Assembly: GCA_049652745.1 (NCBI GenBank)
Contig: JBASEY010000042.1
Location: 6,153-70,152, forward strand
From: a bacterium
Lineage (GTDB): Bacteria > CSSED10-310
Direction of reading: 5' to 3'
Length of the DNA: 64,000 nucleotides
In this document: positions 17,401 through 35,321 of the stretch, one piece after another
How the letters are laid out: the number at the start of each line of letters is the position of its first letter
Position numbering within the stretch: the stretch's first letter is position 1
Translations under genes and position numbers: made by a program
The notes under the pieces: generated by a model
Databases searched by the model: none
Told to the model about the DNA's origin: nothing
The model's input: only the letters and a program-made list of their open reading frames with translations

Positions 17401-17720
17401 GGCTCGATCAATTGCGAGCAAAATATCCGTTTTATAAGGGTATCGATAAGCGCCTTTCCGTATTTGTTCAAAAAGCATCGCAAATTGCAATGGCTGATAA
17501 GGCCTGGGATTCGGCGGGGAAATTGGTGGATTATTTGGTTGATATGAATCCGGATAATCCTGATACCTGGGTTACTCTATCTCAATATTTGCATTGGACC
17601 AAACGAACCGAAGAAGCATTGACTGCTTTGGAAAAAGCTCTGAATAAAGAACCTGAAAATGCACTTTACGGGCGCTTGAAAGAAATCTATGAGGATACAC
17701 TTCGGCGATCCGCTAATTAA
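14409..17720 (+). CDS. large secreted repeat protein: about 12 tandem 27-aa GDDxY/QGAA beta-solenoid-like repeats, then HEAT and C-terminal TPR repeats
   Basis: Signal peptide. Repeats GNDIY.., GRDVY..SQGAA..GVGFLYDER, GDDIY..CQGAA..GISIDLE and so on, between about nt 15260 and 16330. PBS-lyase/HEAT-like repeats near aa 680-900. TPR at the C-terminus. Confidence 0.7.
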   Translation: MSDFFSLISKRNFCLMTAFLLVVVCAYSDDHAPVSILDDAFERAGALRSDLVVPEPWESGLIVAGRQPALSDAMVDPLYIVPLAHVFGARFRGLKGTISPDSLLDTAYEMLHISTTAHKSFVPEPKSLVDALEWLQASHHRGVIEAHYRSHLEKRIAQWPTELEEAVSILVQAMTTASMLHKEALAALDTEEIELLKESIVSIVSDPISTDGQIFFSDNDLEWPRNLQLMAKVNFNKLFYAADILAKAVVITRAGLQTVAAKIPANHEEVLLNFYSPIGRIVVAGTGINTHNSDAALLIDLGGNDIYLNNAGGCIESGVGISLLIDISGNDIYENLNPGSLGGAILGVGMVFDCEGRDVYRSGSLSQGAAIGGVGFLYDERGDDIYHAKSFCQGAAVFGVGISIDLEGDDTIVCKSMGQGFGSTLGLGLMLNIAGNDSYASGVDLAATESNPGFVFAQGAAAGFSPSDKSKNVGYYGGIGFLIDGKGDDQYLAGQFCQGAAKFGSMGLLLDCGGDDYYQAGDFSQGAAEDWSSAVIIDLKGSDRYLAGDTSQAAAVNHSTGICLDYEGDDEYTLIGAHGQGHARQPFSLGLFLDYKGFDRYSGGPFSRGSVVNTFQDTGYIIGVFIDHRGKDIYEGVIYENDSDKEINNTFWSRRFGEIGIDTPLAPGLYFLDQQAHSRHQHYDMSPVTDLESGVELSRLGAGDPFKCNHALSFVNDKGKDAIPIIIKAVSRGHDSFRRTIEEGLGIILLQHPVDTESIDQLIPLLGNLDPKTRQWALIQLAKYSSSDLVEVVANHLHDDDAGVREAAARIAGGIKSSKLERELAQMAVNDTKPGCRYVAMKALAVNTSPEYEVVFRKGLGDSHLAVHHAALDRVIHQNDLVAIGALQLLSLSQNPFVRVSSAIGLIQLGEKSGFPILIDSLEGVPREISPFDTAQDVSEFMAEYSGVDHGWNKGTWEQWWASNEADFSLMRCQKARQDYLEFYSLIATMPPIQVVNRLDQLRAKYPFYKGIDKRLSVFVQKASQIAMADKAWDSAGKLVDYLVDMNPDNPDTWVTLSQYLHWTKRTEEALTALEKALNKEPENALYGRLKEIYEDTLRRSAN

Positions 17721-17735
17721 AAAGGAGGAGTTATC

Positions 17736-18920
17736 ATGCTGTTTTCTCGATCTGATGTAAATACACGTTTGATGATCTGTTTTTGTTCAATTGTAATCGT
17801 ATTTTTTTCATCATCCTCTCTGGCGTTTTTGTCACCCGAGACACCATTGCCGTCGCCACCGAAAAATTGTCATGCTGCTCTGGTTATGGAGGTTTCTTCG
17901 GGGGAAATAGTGTTTGAATACAATATAAACGATCGGGTCTATCCAGCGTCCATGGCCAAAATGATGTTGGTTTTGATAGCCATGGAAAAAGTGAAATCCG
18001 GAGAAATCTCTTTGGACGACGTAATAACCGTATCTGCCGCAGCTTCAAAGATCGGGGGTTCGCAAGTATACTTGAAACAAAATGAAACATTTACCTTACA
18101 GGATCTGTTGGAATCGGTTTTGATACAATCCGCCAATGATTCCAGCCATGCGATAGCGGAATATATAGCTGGTTCTCGAGATGGTTTTGTTGAGCTGATG
18201 AATCAAAGAGCCGCGCAATTAGGGATGGAGAACACGGTATATCAATCTCCGCACGGCCTTCCGCCTGATGCACAAAGAGGACCCGATATCACAACAGCTC
18301 GTGATTTGGCTGTTTTGGCTCGTGAACTATTGATCAATCATCCTGAAATACTTCAATGGACATCATTGGATACCAAACCTTTTCGTGACGGAACATTTAT
18401 TATGACCAATACGAATCGTTTGGTACGTAAATTTGACGGATGCGATGGAATAAAAACCGGTTATTATCGGGATGCCGGGTTCAGTATAACAGCTACGGCA
18501 CAGCAAAAAGGCGTGCGGGTCATCGCGGTTGTCGCTGGTTGTGGGAAAGGGAAAGAAAGGTTTGATGAAGCTGAAAGGCTTATGAAATGGGGTCTGTCGC
18601 TTTTTATAAACACTGAATTGATTTCGGCGGGGTTTCCTGTAGAGAATCTGATTCCGGTCGTAAACGGCGCCAAACTGGAAACTCGACCTGTGACTCAAAA
18701 CAGTGTGAGCGCCGTTATACCCAAGAACAGAGTGGGCGATATCATGATGAAAACCACTCTCGAACGTGAGCTGGTTGCGCCGTTGGAACCTGGAATAAAA
18801 TGTGGAAAAATAAGCTTTTCCCTGGATGACCATGAATTGGGAACAAGTGACCTGGTAACCTCGGAATCCATTGAAGCGCTGGGGTGGTGGGGACGATTGA
18901 AACGAAAAGTCGGGTTGTGA
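17736..18920 (+). CDS. D-alanyl-D-alanine carboxypeptidase (S11 peptidase, PBP5/6-like)
   Basis: SxxK motif (SMAK), SxN motif (SAND), KTG motif (IKTGYY). Signal peptide present. Confidence 0.85.
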   Translation: MLFSRSDVNTRLMICFCSIVIVFFSSSSLAFLSPETPLPSPPKNCHAALVMEVSSGEIVFEYNINDRVYPASMAKMMLVLIAMEKVKSGEISLDDVITVSAAASKIGGSQVYLKQNETFTLQDLLESVLIQSANDSSHAIAEYIAGSRDGFVELMNQRAAQLGMENTVYQSPHGLPPDAQRGPDITTARDLAVLARELLINHPEILQWTSLDTKPFRDGTFIMTNTNRLVRKFDGCDGIKTGYYRDAGFSITATAQQKGVRVIAVVAGCGKGKERFDEAERLMKWGLSLFINTELISAGFPVENLIPVVNGAKLETRPVTQNSVSAVIPKNRVGDIMMKTTLERELVAPLEPGIKCGKISFSLDDHELGTSDLVTSESIEALGWWGRLKRKVGL

Positions 18921-19196
18921 ACACCGAGCGGTTCGTGAATCGTCCTTGGTTCGGTCACCGAAGTCCAGGGTAAAGTCCGAAGAGATTGCTTGTTTTTTCG
19001 ATTTGTCACGTCTAATTATTTACGAATACTGCTTTACATGAGAGACTTCAGTTGAAGTCTAAAGGGCAGCGGATTTCTTGAGGATCAGGTTCAAGACCTT
19101 TCCGATATCGCTGATTACCGCTTCTTCCATACTTCATTTCAATACCCGTATCATCGGAGTGATAGGGATAGACAGCATAAAAGTGTGGGAATTTAA

Positions 19197-19225
19197 TTGA
19201 CTTTTCTTATTTCTTTTGGTATAAG
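19197..19225 (+). promoter_or_regulatory. sigma-70-type promoter candidate, TTGACT-17nt-TATAAG
   Basis: Near-consensus -35 and -10 hexamers with a 17-bp spacer, about 48 nt upstream of the beta-helix gene start. Confidence 0.45.
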
Positions 19226-19272
19226 TGTTCTGGAAGAGAAATAAAACCTTTATCAGAAAGGTAGGTTACACT

Positions 19273-20454
19273 ATGAAAAGGTTTGGGCTTATTATCATAA
19301 GTGTCGCATTTCTTGCGGTTCTGCCCTTGTCGGCGGCGACGTGGAAAGTTGGCAAAAGTACGCTGGCTGATTTCGACAGTATTCAGCAGGCAATTCTGGA
19401 CAGTTCTGTCCAAAGCGGTGATACCATATTGGTTTTACCGGGTGTTTATGTCGAGAATGTGTGGTTTCCGGCTAACAAGAACCTTGTTGTCAGGGGGGTA
19501 AAAGGGTATAAGGAGACGATCATTCAACGGCCTGAAATGGATTCAAAAGGTCCTCAGATGACGGTATTGATCAGAAGCCGGAGTGTTTTCGAAGGTTTCA
19601 CGGTAGAAGACCCAAAAGGAGTCATTTGGCCTTTAACAACACTGGAATCTCTGCCGCAACCGGGGGGACAAATCCTTGAAAACACCGCAGGCATCACCGT
19701 AACCGGTCCCGCAACAGTTAAGAACAATTACGTTTCTGGACACCGGTTTGGCATATTGCAAGAGTGTCCTTCGGGAGCAATGGGAATACCGCCTGTTATT
19801 CGGTTCAACATTGTAGAGCATAACGATATCGGGATCGGATGTTGTGAAACGTTTTCGATTTTTCGTGACAACATTGTCACCAACAACTTTTGGTTGGGAA
19901 TTTTCGTTGGGCATTCATCTTGTGATGAAATCGTCAATAATCTGGTAATTGGAAACGGCACTTTGGGCAGGGAGACCAGTTGTGGTGTATTTTGCTGGCA
20001 ATCATATACGTGGCGTCCGTATGAATTGAACCCGAAAATTTCCGCCAATACGATTGCAGCGAACAATGGTGACGGGATTATCTGTGTTTATGTTGAAGGC
20101 GCTCCCAATGTGCCTGTGATAGAACACTCGATCATTGCGCAAAATAGCGGTATTGGCATACACGTTGTTCCGGCGGACAATGAAAACGATACTCCGCGTC
20201 CCAGAGTTTACAACTGCAATATCTGGGGTAATGCTGTCGCCGATGTCAAAAACGTCAGTCGCACAATTAACTGCATCTCGGAAGACCCGTTGTTCGTTCA
20301 TGGATACCGACTGGATTATCTGTCCCCGTGCATTGACCGAGGCGCTCTGCCGGAAAACATCGGCAGTACGACCATCGACAATAAACCTGACAAGGGCAAA
20401 CAAGACCTTGGATTTCATTATCCGATACCGTTGATGCCGGGATTGTTGCAGTAA
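19273..20454 (+). CDS. secreted right-handed parallel beta-helix repeat protein
   Basis: Signal peptide. Repeated short beta-helix turns with N/G-rich caps (NosD/pectate-lyase-like). Preceded by a near-consensus sigma-70 promoter. Confidence 0.6.
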   Translation: MKRFGLIIISVAFLAVLPLSAATWKVGKSTLADFDSIQQAILDSSVQSGDTILVLPGVYVENVWFPANKNLVVRGVKGYKETIIQRPEMDSKGPQMTVLIRSRSVFEGFTVEDPKGVIWPLTTLESLPQPGGQILENTAGITVTGPATVKNNYVSGHRFGILQECPSGAMGIPPVIRFNIVEHNDIGIGCCETFSIFRDNIVTNNFWLGIFVGHSSCDEIVNNLVIGNGTLGRETSCGVFCWQSYTWRPYELNPKISANTIAANNGDGIICVYVEGAPNVPVIEHSIIAQNSGIGIHVVPADNENDTPRPRVYNCNIWGNAVADVKNVSRTINCISEDPLFVHGYRLDYLSPCIDRGALPENIGSTTIDNKPDKGKQDLGFHYPIPLMPGLLQ

Positions 20455-22694: not shown

Positions 22695-24065
22695 TCACAC
22701 CGCATGTGACACGCTGGACAGGTGAAACCCATCTATTCGGACCCAGGGAAACAGTCCCGGCCAATATTCGCCGTAAGTCTTTATCGCCGGCGTCATCCCG
22801 GTGATCCTATTCAGGCTGTTTATCGGTGAATCGTTAAACCGAAAATTGTTGACAGGGTAACGAATTTCTCCATTTTCAATCCAGAAAACACCGTCTCGGG
22901 TGAGTCCGGTGAGTTCAAGGCGGTTCCAATCGATGGGGTTGACATACCAGAAGGATTCAATCAAAAGCCCTTTATTCACACCTGTGACAAGGTCTTCTAC
23001 AGAAAATGTTCCTCCAGGCATAAACAAATTTTTTGGATATGCGATCGGATCGATATTTTTTATACGAGCATAATAAGGCGAATGCTGGAAATTTTGAATG
23101 GCGCCTTCCTTGATCCATTCTATTGTTTTCATCGGCAGTCCCATACTGAAAAAATTTCCGGCATAAGAACCTCCGGAACCTCCGGCGTTGCCGAATTTCA
23201 ACGTCGGGAGCTCGGGATGATTGACGACGCTTTTTATCGAGATGGAATCTTTGAAACACTTATCGCCTAACCTGCTGTTGTTTGATGATTTTCCAAAAAA
23301 AGAATGACCCTTATCAGCTTCTCTGGCGTCCATGGCAAATAGAAGAAACATCAGGTATTCAGAAAGAGCTTTAGGTGACAGGATGACGGTGTAAGTACCA
23401 GGTTCTTGATAACGGGGCTCCGCTGATTGCTTGGCTATTCGAATAGATCGTTCCACAGTGTCCAGGTAGTGGAATCTGTTCCAGTCTCCTTCCCACAAGT
23501 GTGCTTGGCTGCTGCCGTCATGTCGCCGGGTTCGTGTGGACAGAGAGATGGAAATTTCTGTTGACGGCTGCTCTGCGAACAAACCTTTTGTATTTGCAAC
23601 GGCTTTGCTCTTCTCGGTTACATACAGGTTGCCATATATGTTGACATCTCCAGCTTCACCCAGATCACATATTGTTTTGACGATATCGGCTCGAGAATCG
23701 ATGTCGAGCTGTGCCGTACTTTCAAACCAAGCGTTAGTATTTTCATATTTCTGCGGGCTGACAGGTTCGAAAAACTCCGGGTTTATCGGGGCATTTTGGG
23801 CGAATAGAATCGCTTTATTGACCAGTTCATCCAAGTTGTCGTTTTGAAGCAAGTTGGTTTGGATGACGGATTCTTTCCCTTCAACTGCTACAGCCAGGGT
23901 TAGCGAGGTGTTTTGATGGGTTTTATGCTGAGTGATTCGGTTGGCGGCAAATCGAATAGCGCCTACGTTGTCTTCCATTAGAACGGCGGCGGCATGATCG
24001 GCGCCTTTTTTCCGAGCTTTTTCCAGGATAGATTCCAATAGAGCCGTGGTATTCAATATAGTCAT
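22695..24065 (-). CDS. PmbA/TldE-family metalloprotease subunit (second pair)
   Basis: TldD/PmbA-family architecture without HExxxH. Its start overlaps the upstream TldD stop (ATGA). I trimmed the start to the Met at 24065. Confidence 0.7.
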   Translation of the reverse strand: MTILNTTALLESILEKARKKGADHAAAVLMEDNVGAIRFAANRITQHKTHQNTSLTLAVAVEGKESVIQTNLLQNDNLDELVNKAILFAQNAPINPEFFEPVSPQKYENTNAWFESTAQLDIDSRADIVKTICDLGEAGDVNIYGNLYVTEKSKAVANTKGLFAEQPSTEISISLSTRTRRHDGSSQAHLWEGDWNRFHYLDTVERSIRIAKQSAEPRYQEPGTYTVILSPKALSEYLMFLLFAMDAREADKGHSFFGKSSNNSRLGDKCFKDSISIKSVVNHPELPTLKFGNAGGSGGSYAGNFFSMGLPMKTIEWIKEGAIQNFQHSPYYARIKNIDPIAYPKNLFMPGGTFSVEDLVTGVNKGLLIESFWYVNPIDWNRLELTGLTRDGVFWIENGEIRYPVNNFRFNDSPINSLNRITGMTPAIKTYGEYWPGLFPWVRIDGFHLSSVSHAV

Positions 24066-25516
24066 TTTGTTTTCCTCCGTATCGAGATGTTTTTCAGGCG
24101 TAATGGTGCGCTTCCATGAGTCAGAGTGGCGTTTTGTACGGGTTGACCTTTTGCACAGCCCAAGAGGCCATAAGGCCGCCATTCTTCAGCACGGCAGACG
24201 CTGTCGAGAGAGCCCCAGAATGTTGGGTTGGCGCCATCGTATACGACGTTCCATAACGGCTCTTTAACTTTACCGTTTTGAATGCGCCTGCAATATTCGC
24301 CGCCGAACTGAAAATTCAGTCGCTGGTGATCAATACTGAAGGCGGCCATTCCATCGACAAGAATTCCGTTTTCAGTGTCTTCTATCAATTGAGCCAGCGT
24401 GGGTGAACCAGCCGGTCCAGGATCGATACCGATATTTGCCATTCTAAGTAAAGGGAAAGAGCTCCAATGATCTGCTCTGGCGCAGCCATGACTTTTTTTC
24501 TGTCCGATCAACGGTGCGGTGTCACGGGTAGTTGAATAATCCTTCAAAACACCATTTTCGACAAGCTTCCATTTATCAGCCGGTACACCTTCATCGTCAA
24601 AAGCACAGGTAGCCAGGCCGTTGGGAAGTGTTCTGTCTGCGGTGACATTGAACAGTTCCGAGCCGTAACGGTAGTGGTTCAGTTTGTCGGGGGTGGCAAA
24701 GGATGTGCCGGCATAATCCGCTTCCCATCCCAGCACTCTATCGAGCTCGGTAGCGTGTCCGATGGATTCATGAATGACAAGGCGGGTGTGATTGGGCATT
24801 AAAATCAAATCTGCTTTGTCTCTGTTCCAGGGTTTAGCATCCAGCAGTTCGACGGCTTCCCGGGCAACACGTGGTGCTGCAGCCAACAGCTCTTCAGACC
24901 GAATGCCCTCATATCCGACGCCTTGCTGCAGACTTTGATAACTTCTTGTTTCAGATCGATCGTGACTCACTGCTGTAGCTCTGTAATCAGCATCACTAGT
25001 TACCATTACTTGGTCGATACGGCTGCCTAAAGTGTTGACATACTTTTTATCGGTTCGCTGAAAAAGCATGAGCGAACTTGTTTCACTGACACGGTTTACG
25101 GCAGCCATAGATGCATTTATGGCAAGTAAAAGGTCAAATTTTTCTTGTAAGGGTATGGTGAAAGGATCGATTTGAAAGGCTGATTGCCATTGTGATTCAT
25201 AGGCTTTTAACGGTGTCGGTACAATGGAAACACGGGAAATTCGTGCGCCGGCTTCGGCTACCTGAACAGCTTTTTGTACCAGTTTAGCCATGTCTTTTTC
25301 TGTCGTCACTATGCCGGCGGCAAATCCCCAGGCGCCTTTGTGAAACACCCTGACATTCATGCCTTCACTGGCCTCATCAACCATAACATCGATCACTTGG
25401 TCACGGGCACGAAGAATTTGTTCTCGATAACTCCCCCATTGACTCTCCAAAAAAACAAGCTTTTTATCCATTGCCTCGTTTAAGGCGGCACAGAGTAATT
25501 TATCCACATCGATCAT
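24062..25516 (-). CDS. TldD-family zinc metalloprotease (second pair)
   Basis: HESIGHATELD HExxxH motif. TldD-like length and C-terminal Gly-rich region. Confidence 0.8.
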   Translation of the reverse strand: MIDVDKLLCAALNEAMDKKLVFLESQWGSYREQILRARDQVIDVMVDEASEGMNVRVFHKGAWGFAAGIVTTEKDMAKLVQKAVQVAEAGARISRVSIVPTPLKAYESQWQSAFQIDPFTIPLQEKFDLLLAINASMAAVNRVSETSSLMLFQRTDKKYVNTLGSRIDQVMVTSDADYRATAVSHDRSETRSYQSLQQGVGYEGIRSEELLAAAPRVAREAVELLDAKPWNRDKADLILMPNHTRLVIHESIGHATELDRVLGWEADYAGTSFATPDKLNHYRYGSELFNVTADRTLPNGLATCAFDDEGVPADKWKLVENGVLKDYSTTRDTAPLIGQKKSHGCARADHWSSFPLLRMANIGIDPGPAGSPTLAQLIEDTENGILVDGMAAFSIDHQRLNFQFGGEYCRRIQNGKVKEPLWNVVYDGANPTFWGSLDSVCRAEEWRPYGLLGCAKGQPVQNATLTHGSAPLRLKNISIRRKTK

Positions 25517-25739: not shown

Positions 25740-27581
25740 ATGAAGGCATCAATCAACCTGCGTATCAAAGCTCCCAACAGTAAAATGCGTAATGTTCTTC
25801 TGGAAAAGAACGAAGTCATTATTGGCAGGGACGCTTCTTGTGATGTAAGAATTGTTGACCCGGAGGTTTCGCGTCGACATGCCGCCTTGCGAATAGAGTC
25901 TCCAGATAAGATAATCATCAAAGACCTGGGAAGCTCGAACGGCACCTATATTAAAAACTCGCCGATCACAGGAGAAAAACGAATTTCTCCCGAAACCACT
26001 ATTCGTATGGGGAATAGCTATATTACGATTGAAATCAAAGGGGAAATAAAAAGCCAGGGTTTTGATATGGTCGTTACTCCCTCAGCTTATCTGCCGATGT
26101 CGGAAATTCTTGAAAAAGACCTGGATTTTTTCAGTTCCAAGACAAAAGATTTGTTAAGTTTATTCGATGATCTTCTCAGTTTCAGTTTTAGCAAGATACG
26201 ATCAAGTCTGATACTGAGCAAGATAATGGGTATTCTTGAGGCAGACAATGGAATAGTCGTTCTAAAACGTTCCGAGAGTGATACCGAGAAAGCGATTCTT
26301 GCCCAAAAAGGCGAAATCGTTCATTATCCATCGAGTATATTTGAAGCGGTTGGGGAACGGGCGGATTGTATTGTTTTACCCGAAGTCGATTCAAAAGAAT
26401 ACGTAACCGATTTAGGGAAGAAAGGAATTGGATCGCTCATATGTGCGGCAGGAGTCAATTCCGGTTTAATTCGGGTTGTTATCTATCTTGATAGGTCTGT
26501 CGGCAAAAAGATATTCAACAAAAATGATTTAGGTATTCTATGTCACCTGGCTCAAATATACGCAGCAACGGTGACCTATAACGTCGATCAGAAGATACAG
26601 GAACGAAAACTGAGCGGATATGAAGCCGAGCGATTACATTTTTTCGGTGAACTTGCCACTGAAACCGATATTTCGACGTCCAGCTCAAATAAAAAAGTCC
26701 AGCAACTGATGTTCATTGCAATGCGTGTAGGCCAATCGGATCGCCATGTTTTTATACATGGTGAGCATGGCAGCGGGCGTTTGACTTTGGCAAAGCGAAT
26801 ACATGTTTTCAGTAACAGAAAAGAGGGTCCTTTTATTTTTATGGATGCTTTGTCGACACCTCGAGATCGGATAAGAGAGGTGTTGTTTGGGGGCGAAGAA
26901 AAGGACACAAGTCCAGGACTGCTCGAGAGATCGCAGGAAGGAACACTTTACATACAGGAGATTACGGCTGTTCCTCTGGATATTCAAAAGGAATTGGCTG
27001 GCGTGCTGAGCAACGAATATACGTCTGAAAGCGATAATCAGCGGCGCCTATATACCTCGGTTCGTTTAATTGTATCATCTTCGGTTCACCCGGATAAAAC
27101 TGTCGCTGACAGCACGTTTAATTCCAATTTGCTTGATTTGACCTATCCAACGGTGTTGTTTGTGCCGTCGTTGAAAGAACGGAATGAAGATATTCTGTCG
27201 TTGGCGAAACATTTTCTGCGTGAATATTTGCCGTCAAACTGCGCCATGCCCGATTTCAATCCTCAGGCGGTTGAGCTGCTGGTTCGGTATCCATGGCCGG
27301 GCAATATAACTGAACTTCGGGACACGATGAGCTATACGGCGGCGGTGTGCCGTGAAAGGGAATTACAGATAGGGGATTTACCATATAAGTTACGAGAACA
27401 TCCGTCGGTAACTGCATCTAAAAACTTGGGTTTACGTCAACAATTGGATACGTTGGAAACCAATTTGATACTTGGGGCTCTGGAGCGAAATCGTAAAATT
27501 GTGACAAAAGCGGCGAAATCGCTGGGATTGTCGGAATCGACACTTCGATATCGTATGCAGCGATTGAAAATCGAGGTTTGA
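25740..27581 (+). CDS. FHA / GAF-like / degenerate sigma-54-EBP AAA+ / Fis-HTH transcriptional regulator
   Basis: FHA motif (IGRD...RRHA...DLGSSNGT). Central GAF-like region. The AAA+ region is clearly EBP-like, but Walker A is GEHGSGR (Lys to Arg), GAFTGA is replaced by GGEEKDTSPG, and Walker B is YIQEI (Asp to Gln). C-terminal HTH present. Confidence 0.7.
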   Translation: MKASINLRIKAPNSKMRNVLLEKNEVIIGRDASCDVRIVDPEVSRRHAALRIESPDKIIIKDLGSSNGTYIKNSPITGEKRISPETTIRMGNSYITIEIKGEIKSQGFDMVVTPSAYLPMSEILEKDLDFFSSKTKDLLSLFDDLLSFSFSKIRSSLILSKIMGILEADNGIVVLKRSESDTEKAILAQKGEIVHYPSSIFEAVGERADCIVLPEVDSKEYVTDLGKKGIGSLICAAGVNSGLIRVVIYLDRSVGKKIFNKNDLGILCHLAQIYAATVTYNVDQKIQERKLSGYEAERLHFFGELATETDISTSSSNKKVQQLMFIAMRVGQSDRHVFIHGEHGSGRLTLAKRIHVFSNRKEGPFIFMDALSTPRDRIREVLFGGEEKDTSPGLLERSQEGTLYIQEITAVPLDIQKELAGVLSNEYTSESDNQRRLYTSVRLIVSSSVHPDKTVADSTFNSNLLDLTYPTVLFVPSLKERNEDILSLAKHFLREYLPSNCAMPDFNPQAVELLVRYPWPGNITELRDTMSYTAAVCRERELQIGDLPYKLREHPSVTASKNLGLRQQLDTLETNLILGALERNRKIVTKAAKSLGLSESTLRYRMQRLKIEV

Positions 27582-27630
27582 TCGAAGTTCATATTCTTTC
27601 CGGGTCGATTCTGCCTAAAAGTATTTTGAT

Positions 27631-28692
27631 TTAAGGTTCAGATAAAAATCGCAGGTTTGCCGGCGGTTTTTCGCTGCTGCCGGGACCCAGGACATATTTT
27701 GTGATAGCGGGGTAGACCTCGGCAAGCACATCTTGTCGAAGCCTTTCCCGTGTCACCTCGGGGTATTTTCGGTATTCGGCGGCAAGCAATTCAAAGCGGC
27801 CGGCTTCCCCACGGGCAGTTTCCAGTACCCTGTTTTTGTATGCTTCGGCATCTGTGGTCATTTTCAATGCTTCTGCCTGGGCTTCGGGCATGACACTCAT
27901 CGCATAGGCTTCCGCCTGATGGACAAATTCCCGGCTTTCTTCTTGAGCGTTGATAACATCGTTGAAAGCTTGAATAGTCGAACGCGGAGGTCTTACGTTA
28001 CGGATTTCCACGGACAGTATATCCAGGCCGAGGTGATGTTGTTTCATAAGATCCGCCAAGCGGTCGGCAACAAGGTCTCGCAGTTCGATTCGCCCGGACA
28101 CTAGAAGTTGGTCGACTTCCATACCGGATACGCTGTCAAGAATGACGTTCTGCACGAGCAGTTCTAAAACTTTTGAAGGTTGTCCCACATCGAACACGTA
28201 GGTGACAGGGTCTTTGATCTGGAAATTGACCAGAACAAGCAAGTGCAGGATATTTTTATCGCCGGTGACAATGTAGGGTATGGACAGGGTTCCTTGAGCC
28301 AATTGGTCAATTGGACCATACATCCGCTCAAACTCATCCACTTTTTGCGGGTCGGCGCCGAATCCGGCCTGGATAGTTTCGACCGATCGGGTTCTAACTT
28401 TTATCAGTTTGTCGATCGGCCAGGGCATTTTGATGCAGATACCCGGCTCGACACGGTTTCGAACGATTTTCCCAAACCTCATCACGATACCGGTTTCCTG
28501 AACACTGACTTGACGGACACAGGTCGAAGCATACAGCAACCCAAACAAAATCAGAGCGACTATGTAGGATCGGGACAAGATTTTTTTCATCATAGACAAC
28601 TGGTGGTTAAAATTGCCGTTTGCTGGCGCTGGTTGTGAAGAATTGCCGGTATTCATTTTTTTATCGAGTTTGTTTCTGATGAAGGGGTTCAA
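27631..28692 (-). CDS. SPFH/band-7 protein, HflK-like
   Basis: N-terminal TM helix, SPFH domain, C-terminal coiled coil. Start uncertain; it may be the internal MMKKIL. Confidence 0.7.
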   Translation of the reverse strand: MNPFIRNKLDKKMNTGNSSQPAPANGNFNHQLSMMKKILSRSYIVALILFGLLYASTCVRQVSVQETGIVMRFGKIVRNRVEPGICIKMPWPIDKLIKVRTRSVETIQAGFGADPQKVDEFERMYGPIDQLAQGTLSIPYIVTGDKNILHLLVLVNFQIKDPVTYVFDVGQPSKVLELLVQNVILDSVSGMEVDQLLVSGRIELRDLVADRLADLMKQHHLGLDILSVEIRNVRPPRSTIQAFNDVINAQEESREFVHQAEAYAMSVMPEAQAEALKMTTDAEAYKNRVLETARGEAGRFELLAAEYRKYPEVTRERLRQDVLAEVYPAITKYVLGPGSSEKPPANLRFLSEP

Positions 28693-29557
28693 ATAATTCC
28701 GAGTCCATCGATAGGATCACTGTGGTCTTTTCCCCCATTATCTTTTTTTCGGTTTCCAACGTTCTGATAAAAGCAAAAAATTCAGGGTTCTGCGAATAGG
28801 CTTTGCCATATATTTCAGCAGCTTCGGCATCTGCTTGGCCGCGTATAATTTCTGCATCGCGATAAGCGACAGCTAAAATATCGCTGCGTGCTCTGTCGGC
28901 TTCCGCTCGTATTTCGGAGGCTCGCTGTCTGCCTTGAGCGCGATACTCATTTGCAATAGCCGACCGTTCGGCAATCATTCTCCTATAAACGCTTCTTGCA
29001 TTGTCATCAGGAAGAGCGATTCTGGAAAAACCGACTTTTTCGATGACGATACCGTAGGAATTGATTCTTTTTTGAGAGTCTACACTAATTTTGTCGACGA
29101 TTTCGTTTGTTTGAATATTTTCGATTTCCGTCGAGATGATCTGATCCATGCGGTATTCACCGAAAGTCGATGCGACCAATGAGCAAACGACATCGTCCAG
29201 TTTTTGTCGAGCGGATTCCGTATTATGAATTGCTTGAAAGAAAACCAACGGATCGTTTACTCTCCAAAGAACATATGCTTGGATCAGCAGATTTTTCTTG
29301 TCGCCTGTAAGATATTCGATCAAGGGCGTTTCATAAGCCTGGAGTTTTTTATCTATCCGGTTTGTCACGGATATCGGCGCCGGCCACTTGATATAGAGTC
29401 CAGGCTGCTCATGGATCTTTCCGGGTTTTCCGAAATTTGTGATGACAGCGTATTCGTCCACGGAAACCGTGTAGAGACTTAGCACTAAAAGGACAATCAC
29501 AAGCCCGATTATCAATACGGGAACGATAATATTTTTGGTGTTCATCATCTTATTCAT
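28661..29557 (-). CDS. SPFH/band-7 protein, HflC-like
   Basis: Single N-terminal TM, SPFH domain, Ala/Arg-rich coiled-coil tail. Confidence 0.7.
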   Translation of the reverse strand: MNKMMNTKNIIVPVLIIGLVIVLLVLSLYTVSVDEYAVITNFGKPGKIHEQPGLYIKWPAPISVTNRIDKKLQAYETPLIEYLTGDKKNLLIQAYVLWRVNDPLVFFQAIHNTESARQKLDDVVCSLVASTFGEYRMDQIISTEIENIQTNEIVDKISVDSQKRINSYGIVIEKVGFSRIALPDDNARSVYRRMIAERSAIANEYRAQGRQRASEIRAEADRARSDILAVAYRDAEIIRGQADAEAAEIYGKAYSQNPEFFAFIRTLETEKKIMGEKTTVILSMDSELFEPLHQKQTR

Positions 29558-31304
29558 CGTTGATCATTACCCCTGAAACCTTGTTTGGGTTTGATTGGGA
29601 GATAAACAGATCCACCGGTCGCTTTGAAACACGGCTGTCAATCAGCCATAAAGGTTTTCCTGGCAGCCAGTAACCGAGAGCATCATGTCGTATTCGGAGT
29701 TTGTTTATCGATTTGTACTCTTTGAATGCGGCGGTGACGGACAGGAAGGCATTTGCTTGTCCGGCAGCCTTTTCAACGGTTTCTTTCTGATAGCTTTCCG
29801 CCTGGATAATCATGGATGCCGCTTCACCGGTCGTCAAAGGAAGAGTTTCCTTATAATAACCTCTAGCCTGCTCGATAGATGTTTCCAGATCCTCCTGGGC
29901 GCTTATGACATCTTCGAATGCGGGAGCCACTTCCATTGGCGGATGTACATCCAGAAAACAGATTTGCACAATTTCAATACCCAGATTGGCGGCATCCGCC
30001 GAGGATTGAATTGACTCGGTCACCGTCTGTTCAAATTTTTTACGACCATAAGCCAAAATATCGAAGAGCGAATGTTGAGCGGCCAGCCGGCACAGGATCT
30101 CGTACGACATCAACTCTAGCTGACTTTCCGGTTCGACGGCCGAATACAGATATGCGCCGACATCGACAACCCGGTAGTGCAGATTGGCTGCCAGCTCAAC
30201 AATAGCGCCGTCACCTGTTAAAACAGAGTATTCTTTTAGATAATGCGCTTTAGTCCATAAGATAATATCCGTTCTTTCTTTCGTCACATATCCCAGGCGC
30301 ATCCAGCGAACGGAATCCGTATCGATACGCTTGATACGGCTGATGGGTCTTGGCCAATCATAGTGTAATCCGGGGCCGACCGGGTTTTTGATATCGATAG
30401 GTTTTCCCAACCGTTCAACAATTGCTTGTTCACTGTAAGAAACGATATAAAAACCGGATATTATCCAGATGAACACGGCCAGAATCAGTGCTGATCGGAT
30501 GAAATTTCGGCGGAGTTTTTTTGTTTTTTCATGATTTTTCAGATCGAAATGATCGATCAGACGTGATATCAGGTGGTCTTTTTTTGTGTGTATATAACCC
30601 ATAGTGAACATGATAGCCCTGTCTTCCACCGTTCGCTCTTCCGGCATGACCTGATTACTTCGCGTCAGCATGATGGAAAAGGCGTTATAAAGAGTTTTCA
30701 AGGCAATTGCCAGAATCATCAGGGCAATAACACCGGCCATCCAGCGATCGATTCGAAATTCCATTTGTTCGCTCAACAGAGAAACAAGAACCAATATCAA
30801 AGAATAGATATCGACTTTTGAATGATAGGCATCGGCGACCAGAGCTGGTGAACCGGTTTCTTTGCCGACGCTTTCTTCAAAACGGAACCGAATATAACTG
30901 AATAGCATCAAGATCAGGACAATAGCTGCCGCGATAAGCGGATATCGAATAGTTTCCGGAGGGCCACCGAGAAAAACTTCCTTAAATACTCTTGCAGCCA
31001 CGGCTGCCAAAGCGATTCCTATAATCACGCAGGCTCGAGGTTCCCATGAAGAGCGTCTGATGAAACGAGCCTGTTTGTCGGCGGCATCAGCATCTTTTAT
31101 TTTTTCTTTTCGATCCAGAATCAGGGCGATAAACACCATGATAGTCGTGATCAAATCACCGAATGAGTGCCAGGCATCGGCCATAATGGATAGACTGCCG
31201 GTTATCGCCGCCAGGAAAAACTTGACGACAATGGATAACAAATCGACGAAAGCGACGATTATTGCGGTTTTTTCTTGTTTCCTCATGCCATGTGTCATCT
31301 CCAC
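29550..31304 (-). CDS. fusion of a cation-diffusion-facilitator (CDF) transmembrane domain to an SPFH (HflK-like) domain
   Basis: CDF TM2-like SIMADAWHSFGDL and TM5-like LVADAYHSKVD (HxxxD pairs), then an extra TM helix and a full SPFH domain with coiled-coil tail. Confidence 0.65.
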   Translation of the reverse strand: MEMTHGMRKQEKTAIIVAFVDLLSIVVKFFLAAITGSLSIMADAWHSFGDLITTIMVFIALILDRKEKIKDADAADKQARFIRRSSWEPRACVIIGIALAAVAARVFKEVFLGGPPETIRYPLIAAAIVLILMLFSYIRFRFEESVGKETGSPALVADAYHSKVDIYSLILVLVSLLSEQMEFRIDRWMAGVIALMILAIALKTLYNAFSIMLTRSNQVMPEERTVEDRAIMFTMGYIHTKKDHLISRLIDHFDLKNHEKTKKLRRNFIRSALILAVFIWIISGFYIVSYSEQAIVERLGKPIDIKNPVGPGLHYDWPRPISRIKRIDTDSVRWMRLGYVTKERTDIILWTKAHYLKEYSVLTGDGAIVELAANLHYRVVDVGAYLYSAVEPESQLELMSYEILCRLAAQHSLFDILAYGRKKFEQTVTESIQSSADAANLGIEIVQICFLDVHPPMEVAPAFEDVISAQEDLETSIEQARGYYKETLPLTTGEAASMIIQAESYQKETVEKAAGQANAFLSVTAAFKEYKSINKLRIRHDALGYWLPGKPLWLIDSRVSKRPVDLFISQSNPNKVSGVMINDE

Positions 31305-31484
31305 TGTTTTCCAAGTCTATAAAACATACATCTCTAAATCAAACGACTTAAAAAATGTAAGCGCTTTTTAAGTTGAGAAGAGTGTGACCGAGGTGCTTTT
31401 CGGATAGCAGTTTGATATCGGACCGTCAAATGTGCTCCAATCGATTGGTGTAGGCTGAATGATCCTTTTCTAGCGAGGGACGTT

Positions 31485-32327
31485 ATGAGCGGAATAATAT
31501 TTTTAAAGACGGAAAAACTCGATGAAATCAAAAATTTTTATCGAACCAGACTACAATGTGATCTTTGGTTGAACCAAAATACGTGCGTTGTGTTTCAACA
31601 CGGCAATCTGTTACTGGGTTTCTGCGCAGCAGAAAATGCGGAAACATCGGGCTGTATAACATTCTTTTTCCCCACATCAGCCGATGTCGATCGTATGTAC
31701 ATAGCGATGAAAGATACCGCCGATGGTCCTCCAAGAAATAACGACCAGTTTCAAATATATCAGTTTTTTGCCAGGGACCCCGAAGCTAGACTGCTGGAAT
31801 TTCAATGTTTTCAGCATCCGGTGAATCGACACATGACAGCATCTGAACTATTGATGCGCCGTCGCAGCGTGCGGGATTTTTTACCGATTCCCGTATCGGA
31901 TGAGATATTGGAACAGATTTTGGAAATCTGCCGATATGCTCCGACCTCGATGAATTCACAATCATATTATTTTAAGTTCATTTCCGATCCGGCGGTTCTG
32001 GCTTGGTTGGCTGGTGTACGCGGAATGCCGAGTGCACCGTTGGGGCGGGCGCCTATGGCGGTGGCGATCTGCGCCGATCCGGAAAAAACGAAACGACCGG
32101 ACCAGGATGCAGTCATCGCAGCGTATCATTTTTTGCTTGCTGCACGGCACTTTGGGTTGGGAACGTGCTGGGTAGCCGCGATGAATCGAGACGATGTAAA
32201 GGAGCGGCTTGAAATACCTCAACACTTTTACTTGTCAACCATAACACCGCTTGGATGGCCGAAATCTGTCAATCAAAATCTTCCTGATCGACGTGAAGGA
32301 CAAAAAATACTTTGGGGTGGAGACTAA
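31485..32327 (+). CDS. VOC/glyoxalase-like domain fused to a nitroreductase-family domain
   Basis: The C-terminal half carries nitroreductase motifs (RRSVRDF, LGTCWV). The N-terminal roughly 120 aa look VOC-like. Confidence 0.55.
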   Translation: MSGIIFLKTEKLDEIKNFYRTRLQCDLWLNQNTCVVFQHGNLLLGFCAAENAETSGCITFFFPTSADVDRMYIAMKDTADGPPRNNDQFQIYQFFARDPEARLLEFQCFQHPVNRHMTASELLMRRRSVRDFLPIPVSDEILEQILEICRYAPTSMNSQSYYFKFISDPAVLAWLAGVRGMPSAPLGRAPMAVAICADPEKTKRPDQDAVIAAYHFLLAARHFGLGTCWVAAMNRDDVKERLEIPQHFYLSTITPLGWPKSVNQNLPDRREGQKILWGGD

Positions 32328-32330
32328 GGT

Positions 32331-35321
32331 CTATTCCATACCTGGAATGAACCCACTGAATGCTTTGCGGAAATTTTCCAGAGCTTTGTGTTCTCCTTCC
32401 GATCGTAGGCGCATGTCATATTCCAAAATCGACAGGTTGGGGTTGAGATAAGGATCTTCGTATAGCGAGTTGCCCCATTTGGTCTGCATGTAAGTGATTT
32501 CCGCATTGAAACGAGGTCTGCGAACGGGATCGTTGTCGTCTAATCTGCTGATGCTCTCATGATGAATCAGGCGGGCGTAGGGTGTATATATTATTCGATA
32601 ACCTCTGCGTCGAATTTCCATACATAAGTCGATATCCCCAAATGAAACGGCGAGTTCTTCATTAAATCCCCCTGCTTCTTCAAAAACATCCTTTCTTGTC
32701 AGCAAACATGCAGCCGTCACAGCACTATAGTTTTTGACCATATTGGAATGTCCGAAGTAAACACCGTTGTTCTCCTGCATGCCTTTGAACGGGTGTCCGG
32801 CAATCCCGCCCATTCCCAAAATGACCCCTGCATGTTGGATCAAACCATTCGGATAAAGCAATTTTGCGCCGACCACACCGACTTCCTCTCGCTGACCATG
32901 CTCCATCATTGCCGTCAACCAGCCGCTTTGAGTAGCTTCAATATCGTTGTTTAAGAAAAGATAAACTTCAGCATCCGTATGCTGAACAGCATAATTGTTG
33001 ATGGATGAAAAATTGAATCGACCGGGGTATCTGATCGATCGAAACATTTTGTTTTTGGTGTGCATTTTTTTCAGAAACGAGAGCAGCAGGGTGTCGTCGC
33101 TGTCATTATCGACAACCAAAATCTCGTAATTGGGGTAAACGGTGTGTTTTTCTATGGATGTAATGCTTGTGCTCAGAAGGTCTACGGCATTTCGTGTGGG
33201 TATAATTATGCACACTTTTGGATGGTTTTCGATCTGATATTTTACCCGGTAGGAGCCAGGTGAAAGCCCGTTTTCAACATGCGCCTTCAGGCCTCGTCTT
33301 TCGATAGCGGCTTGAAGCGCTTTGATGGAGCTTTCACGATACAAGCCACCTTTCGCTTCCGGATCGACCGCCGTGGAATCGGGAACCATGCGCCAGTGAT
33401 ACAAAATTTTTGGAATATGAACGATACGACGAGCTTGTTCGGTGACACGAAGATATAGGTCATAATCCTGGCTTCCATCGAAGCCTTCACGAAATCCTCC
33501 GACACTCTCGAAAAGCGACCTTCGTATCACAGAAAAATGGTTCAAATAGTTGTTGCATAAAAGAAGATCCGGATCGAAATCAGGTTTATAAAAGGGTTGA
33601 CTGAATTCATCACCTTCCATATTGACTTTGTCCTCATCAGAATAGAAATAATCCGTATCCGGCTTAAACTTGAGTTGAAGTGCGATTTCCATTAGAGCGT
33701 CAGGATCGAGCAAATCATCATGGTCTAGAAGGCAGACGAACTCACCCTTTGCCATTTGGGCCGCCCGGTTGGTGGCGACAGCGATACCGCCGTTCACCTC
33801 GCTGAACAGAAATCGAACTCTAGCAGGGTCTTTTTCAGCATATTCTTGAATGATTCGACGCGGTTCATCGTCAGGTGAAGCATCATCCACAATACATAAT
33901 TCCCAGAAGGGATATCGCTGTGCTAAAACGGAATCGAGGGCGGCCCGCAATATTTTTTCTTCCGTGGCATAAACCGGCATCAGAATCGAAAAAAGATGCT
34001 TGATATCAAGTAATTGAATACGAGAATCCAATTGTTCGGAGTCTGTGCTTTCAGCGGCTTGTTTCTGCTTGATAAGTTGGTCTGTTTTAATTTTGTCGAC
34101 AAACTCCGACAATGATTCCACCGGTGATTCAAAGTGCGGAGAAGCGGTTTTTCGAAACAACTTCGAAGCAAATTTCAAGGGGGCCAGTATGATCTGTCCC
34201 GTTCGAAACGATGCTGAATTTTTTACAGTATGAAGCCCTTTTTCAAAGTCTTTGAGATGCTCCATCATTTTGCAGCTCATCTGCTCGGATTGTTCAACCA
34301 GGCTGTTTATATAGGCATCTTTCTCTTGTATACAATTATCTTTTATACGGATGGACATATCCTGTTTTCTTAATTGAATATGAGCGTTATCCAACTCATT
34401 TTGAAGTAGACGAATTGTCCGATGTAACTTGGTTAAAGAAAGAGCCTGTTCATAATGAATATGACCGAACTCCAAGATGGTTTTACCGGAAAATTCCAGA
34501 TATCGACTGACGATAGTGTTCAGTTCTCTTATCGAGTCTGATTTCTTTTCTCGGATTTCGTCGTGTATTTGGGTTAGACCATCGGCAAAAGAGCTCGTAC
34601 GGCAATCGGGATTTTTAAATATGACAACCATATCCCGGTATCCGGGCGCTGAAATGCAAACCGGTTCAGCCAGAGGTAAAAGCTCGTATTCAAAATTCAT
34701 AACGGCTTCAGGGCCGCTGCTAAGTTGGAGAAGATGCTTTACCGCCATGACAAGCCGCCACTTGCCAAGATCACCGTTCATAAAAGAGGTGTATTCAAGC
34801 CCCCGCTTTTTCAAAATGGAAAGAAAGGCTTCCATCTCCGGTAAACCGTTTTCAAGATGCTCCTGCAGCATAGGGTTGACTGAATTCAATAAAACTTTAT
34901 GGTACTCAGCCAGCCAGCGATCGGCGGCAATACGCAGATCATGATAAAAAGGCGCTCCCAGCAATAAGACATTTGATGTCACGCGCAGCGCTTCATCCAA
35001 AAATGTCGATCGTCTTGTTGGATGAATATGTTCGAAAACGTCCATACACAGCGTCAACTCGAAAGCGTTATCGTCAAAAGGGAGCGGTTGGTCGGGTGAA
35101 ATGGGCGAATATCCAGGTAACTCTGCAGCAACCGTATCGACAACTGAGCAATTGCAATTTTCCAGTATCCGATGAGAGGGTAACACGGGTTCACCGGCAA
35201 GTGTTTTGAAATAACCTCCGATATCCAGAATGTTGGGTTTTGGAGCTGACTCTCGAAGCAGCTCCAGGACCAATGCTGCGCCGCGATATCTCTCAACCTG
35301 ATCAAATGTCAACCCTTTCAT
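32331..35321 (-). CDS. multidomain glycan-synthesis enzyme: class I SAM methyltransferase, long coiled coil, two GT2 domains
   Basis: N-terminal MT motif I (ILDIGG). Coiled-coil region about aa 300-430. GT2 domain 1 (IVDDASPDD) and GT2 domain 2 (LVVDNDSDD). Confidence 0.8.
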   Translation of the reverse strand: MKGLTFDQVERYRGAALVLELLRESAPKPNILDIGGYFKTLAGEPVLPSHRILENCNCSVVDTVAAELPGYSPISPDQPLPFDDNAFELTLCMDVFEHIHPTRRSTFLDEALRVTSNVLLLGAPFYHDLRIAADRWLAEYHKVLLNSVNPMLQEHLENGLPEMEAFLSILKKRGLEYTSFMNGDLGKWRLVMAVKHLLQLSSGPEAVMNFEYELLPLAEPVCISAPGYRDMVVIFKNPDCRTSSFADGLTQIHDEIREKKSDSIRELNTIVSRYLEFSGKTILEFGHIHYEQALSLTKLHRTIRLLQNELDNAHIQLRKQDMSIRIKDNCIQEKDAYINSLVEQSEQMSCKMMEHLKDFEKGLHTVKNSASFRTGQIILAPLKFASKLFRKTASPHFESPVESLSEFVDKIKTDQLIKQKQAAESTDSEQLDSRIQLLDIKHLFSILMPVYATEEKILRAALDSVLAQRYPFWELCIVDDASPDDEPRRIIQEYAEKDPARVRFLFSEVNGGIAVATNRAAQMAKGEFVCLLDHDDLLDPDALMEIALQLKFKPDTDYFYSDEDKVNMEGDEFSQPFYKPDFDPDLLLCNNYLNHFSVIRRSLFESVGGFREGFDGSQDYDLYLRVTEQARRIVHIPKILYHWRMVPDSTAVDPEAKGGLYRESSIKALQAAIERRGLKAHVENGLSPGSYRVKYQIENHPKVCIIIPTRNAVDLLSTSITSIEKHTVYPNYEILVVDNDSDDTLLLSFLKKMHTKNKMFRSIRYPGRFNFSSINNYAVQHTDAEVYLFLNNDIEATQSGWLTAMMEHGQREEVGVVGAKLLYPNGLIQHAGVILGMGGIAGHPFKGMQENNGVYFGHSNMVKNYSAVTAACLLTRKDVFEEAGGFNEELAVSFGDIDLCMEIRRRGYRIIYTPYARLIHHESISRLDDNDPVRRPRFNAEITYMQTKWGNSLYEDPYLNPNLSILEYDMRLRSEGEHKALENFRKAFSGFIPGME

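Follow-up and report, generated by a model that had tools for sequence, protein, structure and literature searches.

In this work, we describe a three-gene module in which a putative metal transporter and a membrane scaffold of the HflK/HflC type are joined in one polypeptide. The module lies in a stretch of 64,000 nucleotides of bacterial DNA (contig JBASEY010000042.1 of assembly GCA_049652745.1), which we call the window and to which all coordinates refer unless another locus is named. Its lead gene, K1 (29550..31304, minus strand), is predicted to encode the core of a divalent-metal/proton antiporter from the family of cation diffusion facilitators (CDF), fused end to end to a complete HflK-type protein. 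The two genes that follow in the same direction encode an HflC-type SPFH protein, C (28661..29557, minus strand; 298 amino acids, with one N-terminal transmembrane (TM) helix at residues 10-28), and a plain HflK-type SPFH protein, K2 (27631..28692, minus strand; 353 amino acids counted from a TTG codon, with one TM helix at residues 44-62). By its gene content, the region appears to be a self-contained K-C-K SPFH module of three genes. Both component families, CDF and HflK/C, are well known, and it is their fusion together with the K-C-K operon that appears to be new. The author of an earlier sequence-only reading of this DNA knew of no described CDF-SPFH fusion, and our full-text literature search brought up no report of a fusion of either a CDF protein or a P-type ATPase to an SPFH domain, of an EamA-HflK fusion or of a K-C-K operon. 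Public annotations of these proteins name one half only, as "FtsH protease activity modulator HflK", "HflK" or "cation transporter".

K1 is a single intact open reading frame (ORF) of 584 amino acids that starts from a GTG codon at 31304, as the sequence-only reading had it. However, the true start is probably the ATG at 31286 (M7), 18 nt further in, which would give a protein of 578 amino acids, since the homologues begin with MRKQEK and the public database entry for the identical protein (P0001) has this same length. The stop of K1 and the start of C overlap by 8 nt at the junction ATGAATAA. The second junction is set by the choice of the K2 start, as the TTG at 28692 gives a 32-nt overlap with C and the ATG at 28656 (341 amino acids) leaves a 4-nt gap. 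Thus, of the overlapping stops and starts proposed before, the first holds, whereas the second depends on the start codon. All three proteins match Band_7 (PF01145; cut-off 23.6 bits), with 69.1 bits for K1, 92.3 for C and 73.7 for K2. A promoter and terminator scan of 27300-31600 returned fewer sites than were obtained in shuffled sequence.

The N-terminal half of K1 carries the features of a CDF transporter. Residues 15-213 match the Pfam family Cation_efflux (PF01545) with an E-value of 8.7e-22 and 78.3 bits (cut-off 26.6), over positions 2-198 of the 198 in the profile. Hydropathy places six TM helices at residues 14-32, 45-63, 93-111, 122-140, 159-177 and 188-206 (domain at residues 14-206; 30687..31265, minus strand), with the N-terminus inside and the basic loops on the inner side of the membrane. 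The TIGR01297 model, which also spans the CDF C-terminal domain, reaches 77.7 bits against a cut-off of 82.35 and is matched at positions 2-210 of its 285. In an AlphaFold2 (AF2) model of K1, computed from a 27-sequence family alignment (mean pLDDT 78.9, pTM 0.47), the TM half superposes on YiiP with a root-mean-square deviation (rmsd) of 2.8 Å over 201 columns (5vrf_A) and of 3.0 Å (8f6e_A); when searched against solved structures, the family profile retrieves FieF/YiiP at E 6e-18. Both the profile score over the N-terminal ~210 residues and the predicted fold, on which the sequence-only reading had let its CDF assignment depend, therefore agree with that assignment.

The two motifs named in that reading are present, DAWHSFGD in TM2 (residues 43-50; 31155..31178, minus strand) and DAYHSKVD in TM5 (residues 158-165; 30810..30833, minus strand). 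A direct alignment with E. coli YiiP equates H46, D50, H161 and D165 of K1 with the site A residues D45, D49, H153 and D157. Among 210 family members, these positions are conserved in 200 (H46), 206 (D50), 208 (H161) and 209 (D165), and the complete HD-HD quartet is found in 197, at pairwise identities down to ~25%. HD-HD, a composition seen in CDF proteins of the Zn type, is the site A quartet of ZnT-8 (PMC8341793). Conservation is not restricted to site A and extends over the whole six-helix core. The cytoplasmic C-terminal domain of CDF proteins, ZT_dimer (PF16916), gives no match in K1 even at E<=1, and the region where it would stand is helical and devoid of beta strands, which confirms the absence of this domain proposed before. 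The closest free-standing CDF relatives (P0053-P0065) all carry PF16916. A link to the magnetosome CDF proteins was considered and dismissed: MamB (NF033616) is the best specific model, with 63.3 bits against a cut-off of 350, and MamM (NF033615) obtains 38.7 against 350. Because even this best model stays far below its cut-off, no substrate was assigned to K1.

Between the transporter and the scaffold lies a basic, helical linker of 57 residues, 10 of them K or R (residues 207-263; 30516..30686, minus strand), which hydropathy and composition place in the cytoplasm. It is modelled as two helices (186-218 and 226-253) with zero beta strands, and is weakly conserved in the family (0.13-0.17). 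By its position, the linker stands where the CDF C-terminal domain would be and corresponds to the N-terminal cytoplasmic tail of HflK, whose TM helix in E. coli (residues 80-98) comes after a tail of 79 amino acids. The seventh TM helix of K1 (residues 271-289; 30438..30494, minus strand; hydropathy 2.25; helix 258-282 in the model) is the equivalent of the single membrane anchor of HflK. This helix, taken with the basic inner loops, puts the SPFH domain of K1 on the periplasmic side, as in HflK.

The SPFH/Band 7 domain itself (residues 287-482; 29859..30446, minus strand) is matched by Band_7 at E 6.6e-19, and is followed by long coiled-coil helices (residues 460-546; 29667..29927, minus strand), such as make up the wall of the HflK/C cage. 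In the AF2 model, SPFH strands are found at 285-379 and coiled-coil helices at 460-529 and 531-546, and the HflK profile match reaches position 562. The NCBIfam hflK model (TIGR01933) gives 153.8 bits on the SPFH part of K1, marginally under its cut-off of 159.4. The best fold match of the C-terminal half is E. coli HflK (7vhq_E, Foldseek E 7e-18), followed by the stomatin, prohibitin and erlin cages, and E. coli HflK is also found by the family profile among solved structures, at E 3e-60. An extra TM helix leading into a full HflK-type SPFH domain had been described from the letters of the DNA, and this description stands, E. coli HflK being the best solved relative. The scaffold was rightly taken for an SPFH domain, but it is of the HflK/C type and not of the stomatin type that had been named.

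The two downstream genes were likewise correctly read as HflC-like and HflK-like. C obtains 186.4 bits with the NCBIfam hflC model (TIGR01932; cut-off 134.4) and K2 190.9 bits with the hflK model (cut-off 159.4). A neighbour-joining tree of the SPFH modules separates K-type from C-type sequences at 100% bootstrap. The C-type group consists of all second genes and E. coli HflC, and the K-type group of the SPFH domains of all lead genes, all third genes and E. coli HflK. The deep nodes within the K-type group have bootstrap values of 2-20%, a level at which single and multiple origins of the fusion, and a swapping of domains, are not separated.

The CDF-HflK fusion is a conserved family and not a one-off. 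A word-indexed search returned ~34 proteins with both Pfam domains at identities down to 29%. In an exhaustive profile search over 1.84 billion cluster representatives (50% identity), the fusion occurs in at least 150 clusters, the matches listed all having E-values <1e-95 and nearly all aligning end to end; the family is probably larger than that. Among species-representative genomes, 159 stretches encode a relative, and 77 of these loci were kept for comparison. They come from CSSED10-310, FCPU426, Abyssobacteria, Planctomycetota, Thermodesulfobacteriota, Myxococcota, Verrucomicrobiota/PVC, Hydrogenedentota, Muiribacteriota and Pseudomonadota, so that the family spans at least 10 phyla. The closest named lineage to the window is CSSED10-310, with 63% identity. 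Two cultured bacteria are hosts, Marinibactrum halimedae NBRC 110095, among the species-representative loci, and Aquibium oceanicum B7, found by a tblastn search of plasmids. Cation_efflux and Band_7 were confirmed in the proteins of both.

The ORFs of all fetched loci were searched with parts of the window proteins. The order K1, C, K2 on one strand is kept in ~70 of the ~70 loci with enough downstream DNA, and the five loci that lack the full order all stop at a contig edge. Thus, the survey of fusion and operon order that had been suggested shows the fusion to recur in 77 loci, with its gene order preserved wherever the downstream DNA is long enough. Across loci, the HflC-like protein has ~290-300 amino acids and the HflK-like product of the third gene ~310-350, and the three genes abut or overlap. 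No ftsH gene is conserved beside the CDF module in the neighbour clusters of 82 loci, and the window holds no SPFH gene beyond the module.

In A. oceanicum B7, the module is carried by the conjugative plasmid NZ_CP018172.1 (positions 16552-20197), where the genes are annotated hflK, HflC and hflK; being plasmid-borne, it is accessory in this bacterium. By gene content, it lies in a metal-homeostasis island (L090; NZ_CP018172.1 7588-27072), which contains genes for an Nramp protein, two PCu(A)C proteins, a two-component system, an IS3-type transposase, a peptidyl-prolyl isomerase (PPIase), an HMA-P1B-ATPase, a SCO protein and a DsbB protein. The IS3-type transposase ORFs (L090 7516-8624) are directly upstream of the module, in a stretch without annotation in the PLSDB table.

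The same pair of C and K2 genes is also found behind other transporter-HflK fusions. In every variant, the lead protein has the common layout of a polytopic domain, a cytoplasmic linker, one TM helix and a K-type SPFH domain. A P1B-type ATPase-HflK fusion (P0036) from a Bryobacterales metagenome-assembled genome (GCA_016789745.1) contains the CPC and DKTGT motifs and no HMA domain, and is followed by C and K2 genes (L004 6001-10865; a second such locus is L089 5001-8860). A search with the tail of P0036 alone returned 1304 proteins, the best 120 of which all have E-values <1e-136 and come mostly from soil Acidobacteriota. Many also carry the PF00702 ATPase domain, and most of those without it, found on very short contigs, are probably truncated. 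In L089 the ATPase fusion is broken by frameshifts, and shorter forms on long contigs can thus be fragments as well. Such proteins are annotated as 'HflK protein' or 'Cu+-exporting ATPase'. Directly after the K-C-K genes of the ATPase variant comes a small gene (L004 10862-11353 and L089 8857-9294; 163 and 145 amino acids), whose product has one N-terminal hydrophobic segment and no recorded Pfam match. Identity between the copies is 46% (E 2e-50), and the gene may encode a fourth component specific to this variant.

In a further form, an EamA-HflK fusion of 853 amino acids (L008 and L009 6001-10282; e.g. P0049) precedes Band_7 genes for proteins of 293 and 281 amino acids. Its K1 clusters weakly with its own K2 in the neighbour-joining tree, which hints at an independent fusion. 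At this locus, a rubrerythrin/ferritin-like gene is located divergently upstream. Finally, at L010 (6001-11780) the lead protein (P0038, 611 amino acids) has an N-terminal part of ~5 TM helices without Pfam match before the HflK-type SPFH domain, and the module is followed by a separate gene for a P-type ATPase of 638 amino acids and an NlpC/P60 gene. As judged from these loci, the transporter part is interchangeable between CDF, P1B-ATPase, EamA and a further polytopic domain. With the CDF-HflK proteins, the P1B-ATPase-HflK and EamA-HflK proteins share the succession of transporter, linker, TM helix and K-type SPFH domain and the downstream C and K2 genes. They differ in that the transporter is an ATP-driven heavy-metal pump or an exporter of the DMT family, and in the small fourth gene that the ATPase variant adds.

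Several known systems resemble parts of this module. In E. coli, 24 alternating HflK and HflC subunits surround a patch of membrane containing FtsH, an assembly that controls the proteolysis of membrane proteins (PMC12048511). These two proteins (PDB 7vhp, 7wi3, 9cz2) resemble those described here in having one N-terminal TM anchor, an SPFH domain in the periplasm and a long coiled coil after it, as well as in the gene order K then C. However, there are two genes in E. coli and three (K-C-K) here, and the first K of the module bears a whole transporter where E. coli HflK has a disordered N-terminal tail. The E. coli context hfq-hflX-hflK-hflC is not shared by the window locus, near which there is no ftsH. 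The CDF proteins YiiP/FieF, CzcD and ZnT-8 (TC 2.A.4) have the same six-TM fold (rmsd 2.8-3.0 Å to YiiP) and the TM2/TM5 quartet at homologous positions, whereas K1 is without ZT_dimer domain and without His-rich loop, and continues into the linker, TM7 and a periplasmic SPFH domain. The human stomatin cage encloses AQP1 and UT-B (PMC12407830). It provides a second case in which a channel or transporter is kept in a patch of membrane under an SPFH dome (PDB 9zd2, 9oh9), and the stomatin SPFH fold matches K1. Nevertheless, the client of stomatin is non-covalent and encoded elsewhere, and its homo-oligomeric cage faces the cytoplasm, whereas in the K-C-K module the client is fused in frame and the cage would be hetero-oligomeric (K1/C/K2) and on the periplasmic face.

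We favour, with somewhat better than even confidence, the view that K1, C and K2 form a ring or cage of the HflK/C kind, in which some K positions carry a tethered metal exporter. On the basis of homology and synteny, the three proteins would come together at the inner membrane, on its periplasmic side, as a hetero-oligomer in which C-type subunits adjoin K-type subunits, some K positions holding a covalently tethered exporter. Plain K2 would act as a spacer in the K positions left over, the probable reason being that not every position has room for a domain of six helices or an ATPase of eight; that K2 is invariably present with three different bulky transporter partners fits this role. The exporter would be held permanently within the membrane patch bounded by the cage, and K1 would presumably export a divalent metal similar to Zn2+ from the cytoplasm. 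With the CDF C-terminal domain lost, its part in oligomerisation would fall to the scaffold, which would also set the local environment or the turnover of the exporter, possibly via FtsH, if the cage recruits FtsH as E. coli HflK/C does. We infer from the fusion and its context that scaffold and transporter would be functionally coupled, as the sequence-only reading had proposed. The P-type ATPase gene that follows the module at L010 and the A. oceanicum island were counted as a metal context for this tethered-exporter assembly.

Several points weigh against such an assembly. CDF proteins usually act as dimers held by the C-terminal domain that K1 lacks. The assembly, the transport and the metal specificity rest on sequence, fold and synteny; none of the substrate-specific CDF models of NCBIfam reaches its cut-off for K1; and a six-member subclade of the family (L020-L024, P0071) has ADHD at site A, which may reflect a weaker site or an altered preference for metals. 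If translational coupling led to equal expression of the three genes, there would be two K-type subunits for each C-type subunit, unlike the 1:1 alternation of E. coli HflK/C. With a pTM of 0.47, the arrangement of the domains in the K1 model is unreliable and does not fix whether the transporter is inside or outside the ring. Moreover, neither a fourth gene nor a metal regulator is conserved beside the CDF module, the most frequent neighbour cluster being present at 10 of 82 loci, and no ftsH is present in the 64-kb window.

The simplest objection, that an ordinary hflKC locus was joined to a CDF neighbour through a mistake in sequencing, assembly or gene calling, or through neutral read-through, has next to no chance of being correct. 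It is true that metagenome assemblies contain broken and chimeric genes, the frameshifted ATPase fusion in L089 being an example. However, K1 is one ORF in all of the at least 150 cluster representatives listed (50% identity), nearly all of them matching end to end, and in the 77 species-level loci, which excludes the frameshift or two-gene alternative that the sequence-only reading had kept open. The fusion also occurs in finished sequences of cultured bacteria, the loss of the CDF C-terminal domain and the presence of the extra K2 are consistent, and three transporter classes share the same design. The artefact explanation is thus effectively refuted.

A different role would be that of a metal-sensing regulator of an FtsH complex, in which the CDF or ATPase part has given up net export and is a ligand sensor. 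By changing its conformation it would open or close a cage of HflK/C and FtsH and thereby make membrane proteolysis follow the metal status of the cell. Control of membrane proteolysis by FtsH is the established role of HflK/C (PMC12048511), a conserved metal site would be needed by a sensor too, and the C-terminal domain, usual site of dimerisation and allosteric control in CDF proteins, is gone from K1. We nevertheless judge this role rather unlikely, as conservation extends beyond the site to the full six-helix core and the YiiP fold, the ATPase fusions retain their catalytic DKTGT and CPC motifs, and the window has no ftsH near the module. In addition, EamA, which is no metal binder, has the same design, and a general reading of the fused domains as tethered clients is therefore simpler. 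FtsH could instead act on the exporter itself, the fusion serving as a tag that delivers it within the cage for fast regulated degradation, by which efflux is quickly switched off and transport as such is unaffected. In Salmonella, metal-transport proteins (MgtA/MgtC) undergo turnover controlled by FtsH. HflK/C promotes the degradation of membrane substrates by FtsH (PMC12048511), and the basic, helical and poorly conserved linker of K1 could be an engagement site. However, a permanent covalent tether would pull the scaffold subunit into the protease, and ftsH is linked to the module neither in the window nor in the neighbour clusters, which makes a turnover tag quite improbable.

We also considered that exporters in a closed cage may pump metal into its lumen, which would form a metal-filled periplasmic chamber, anchored in the membrane, where metal is sequestered or mineralised or where periplasmic clients are metallated in a controlled way. 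E. coli HflK/C can close over a patch of membrane as a dome of 24 subunits (PMC12048511; PDB 9paw), every identifiable fused partner is of exporter type, with a product that would emerge on the cage side, and PCu(A)C and SCO, which are copper chaperones of the periplasm, are encoded near the A. oceanicum module. However, native HflK/C is open and nautilus-like (PMC12048511), a wall of coiled-coil protein is unlikely to be ion-tight, the K1 model does not support a placement of the transporter inside the ring, and no cargo or nucleation protein is conserved beside the module in the neighbour clusters. Such a chamber seems to us highly doubtful; if true, it would be the first SPFH cage that serves as a container for a transported solute (with CDF, P1B-ATPase or EamA as its pump) and not as a scaffold or protease regulator.

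The tethered-exporter assembly bears on a general question, since the function and the clients of bacterial SPFH cages are still open, and for the cages that recent cryo-EM work has shown around FtsH and around AQP1 and UT-B, it took experiments to identify the clients. In the K-C-K module, the client has been written into the scaffold gene by evolution, and this for three transporter classes, in families that range from hundreds (CDF) to >1000 (P1B-ATPase) members. Recurrent fusions of this kind are strong genetic evidence that assemblies of the HflK/C type have been selected to hold exporters, and suggest that cages may hold transporters as built-in clients. They also imply that a CDF transporter supplied with some other scaffold for oligomerisation may be able to do without its C-terminal domain. 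With its two cultured hosts, K-C-K constitutes a defined and stoichiometrically tractable complex for structural and transport work.

In the window, the neighbours of the module are genes for a nitroreductase, a large glycosyltransferase, an FHA-sigma54 activator and a TldD/PmbA pair. An Rfam scan of the whole 64 kb found no family at gathering score, and hence no tRNA, rRNA or riboswitch by that scan. Membership of the module in anti-phage defence was also considered and rejected, as no PADLOC-DB model matches K1, C or K2 at E<=0.001. Convergent with the operon, 25740-27581 (plus strand) encodes a sigma-54 activator of 613 amino acids with an FHA domain (Yop-YscD_cpl/FHA, Sigma54_activat, HTH_8), and sigma-54 activators are present near the module in 8 further loci. 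A sigma-54 control of the module was not retained, because TGGCAC-N5-TTGC-like sites occur upstream of K1 in 4 of 74 loci, compared with 7 of 74 both for the opposite strand and for the interior of genes, and the window has none. The TldD/PmbA-type metalloprotease pair (22695-25516, minus strand) was not seen to be linked to the SPFH module in other loci; its listed ORFs overlap by ~120 nt (24062-24182), and a public gene call (L005) cuts this overlap to 4 nt by its choice of start for the downstream gene. The glycosyltransferase gene (32331-35321, minus strand), which sits two genes upstream of the module, encodes a protein of 996 amino acids with a long N-terminal part without recorded Pfam match and two glycosyltransferase family 2 regions.

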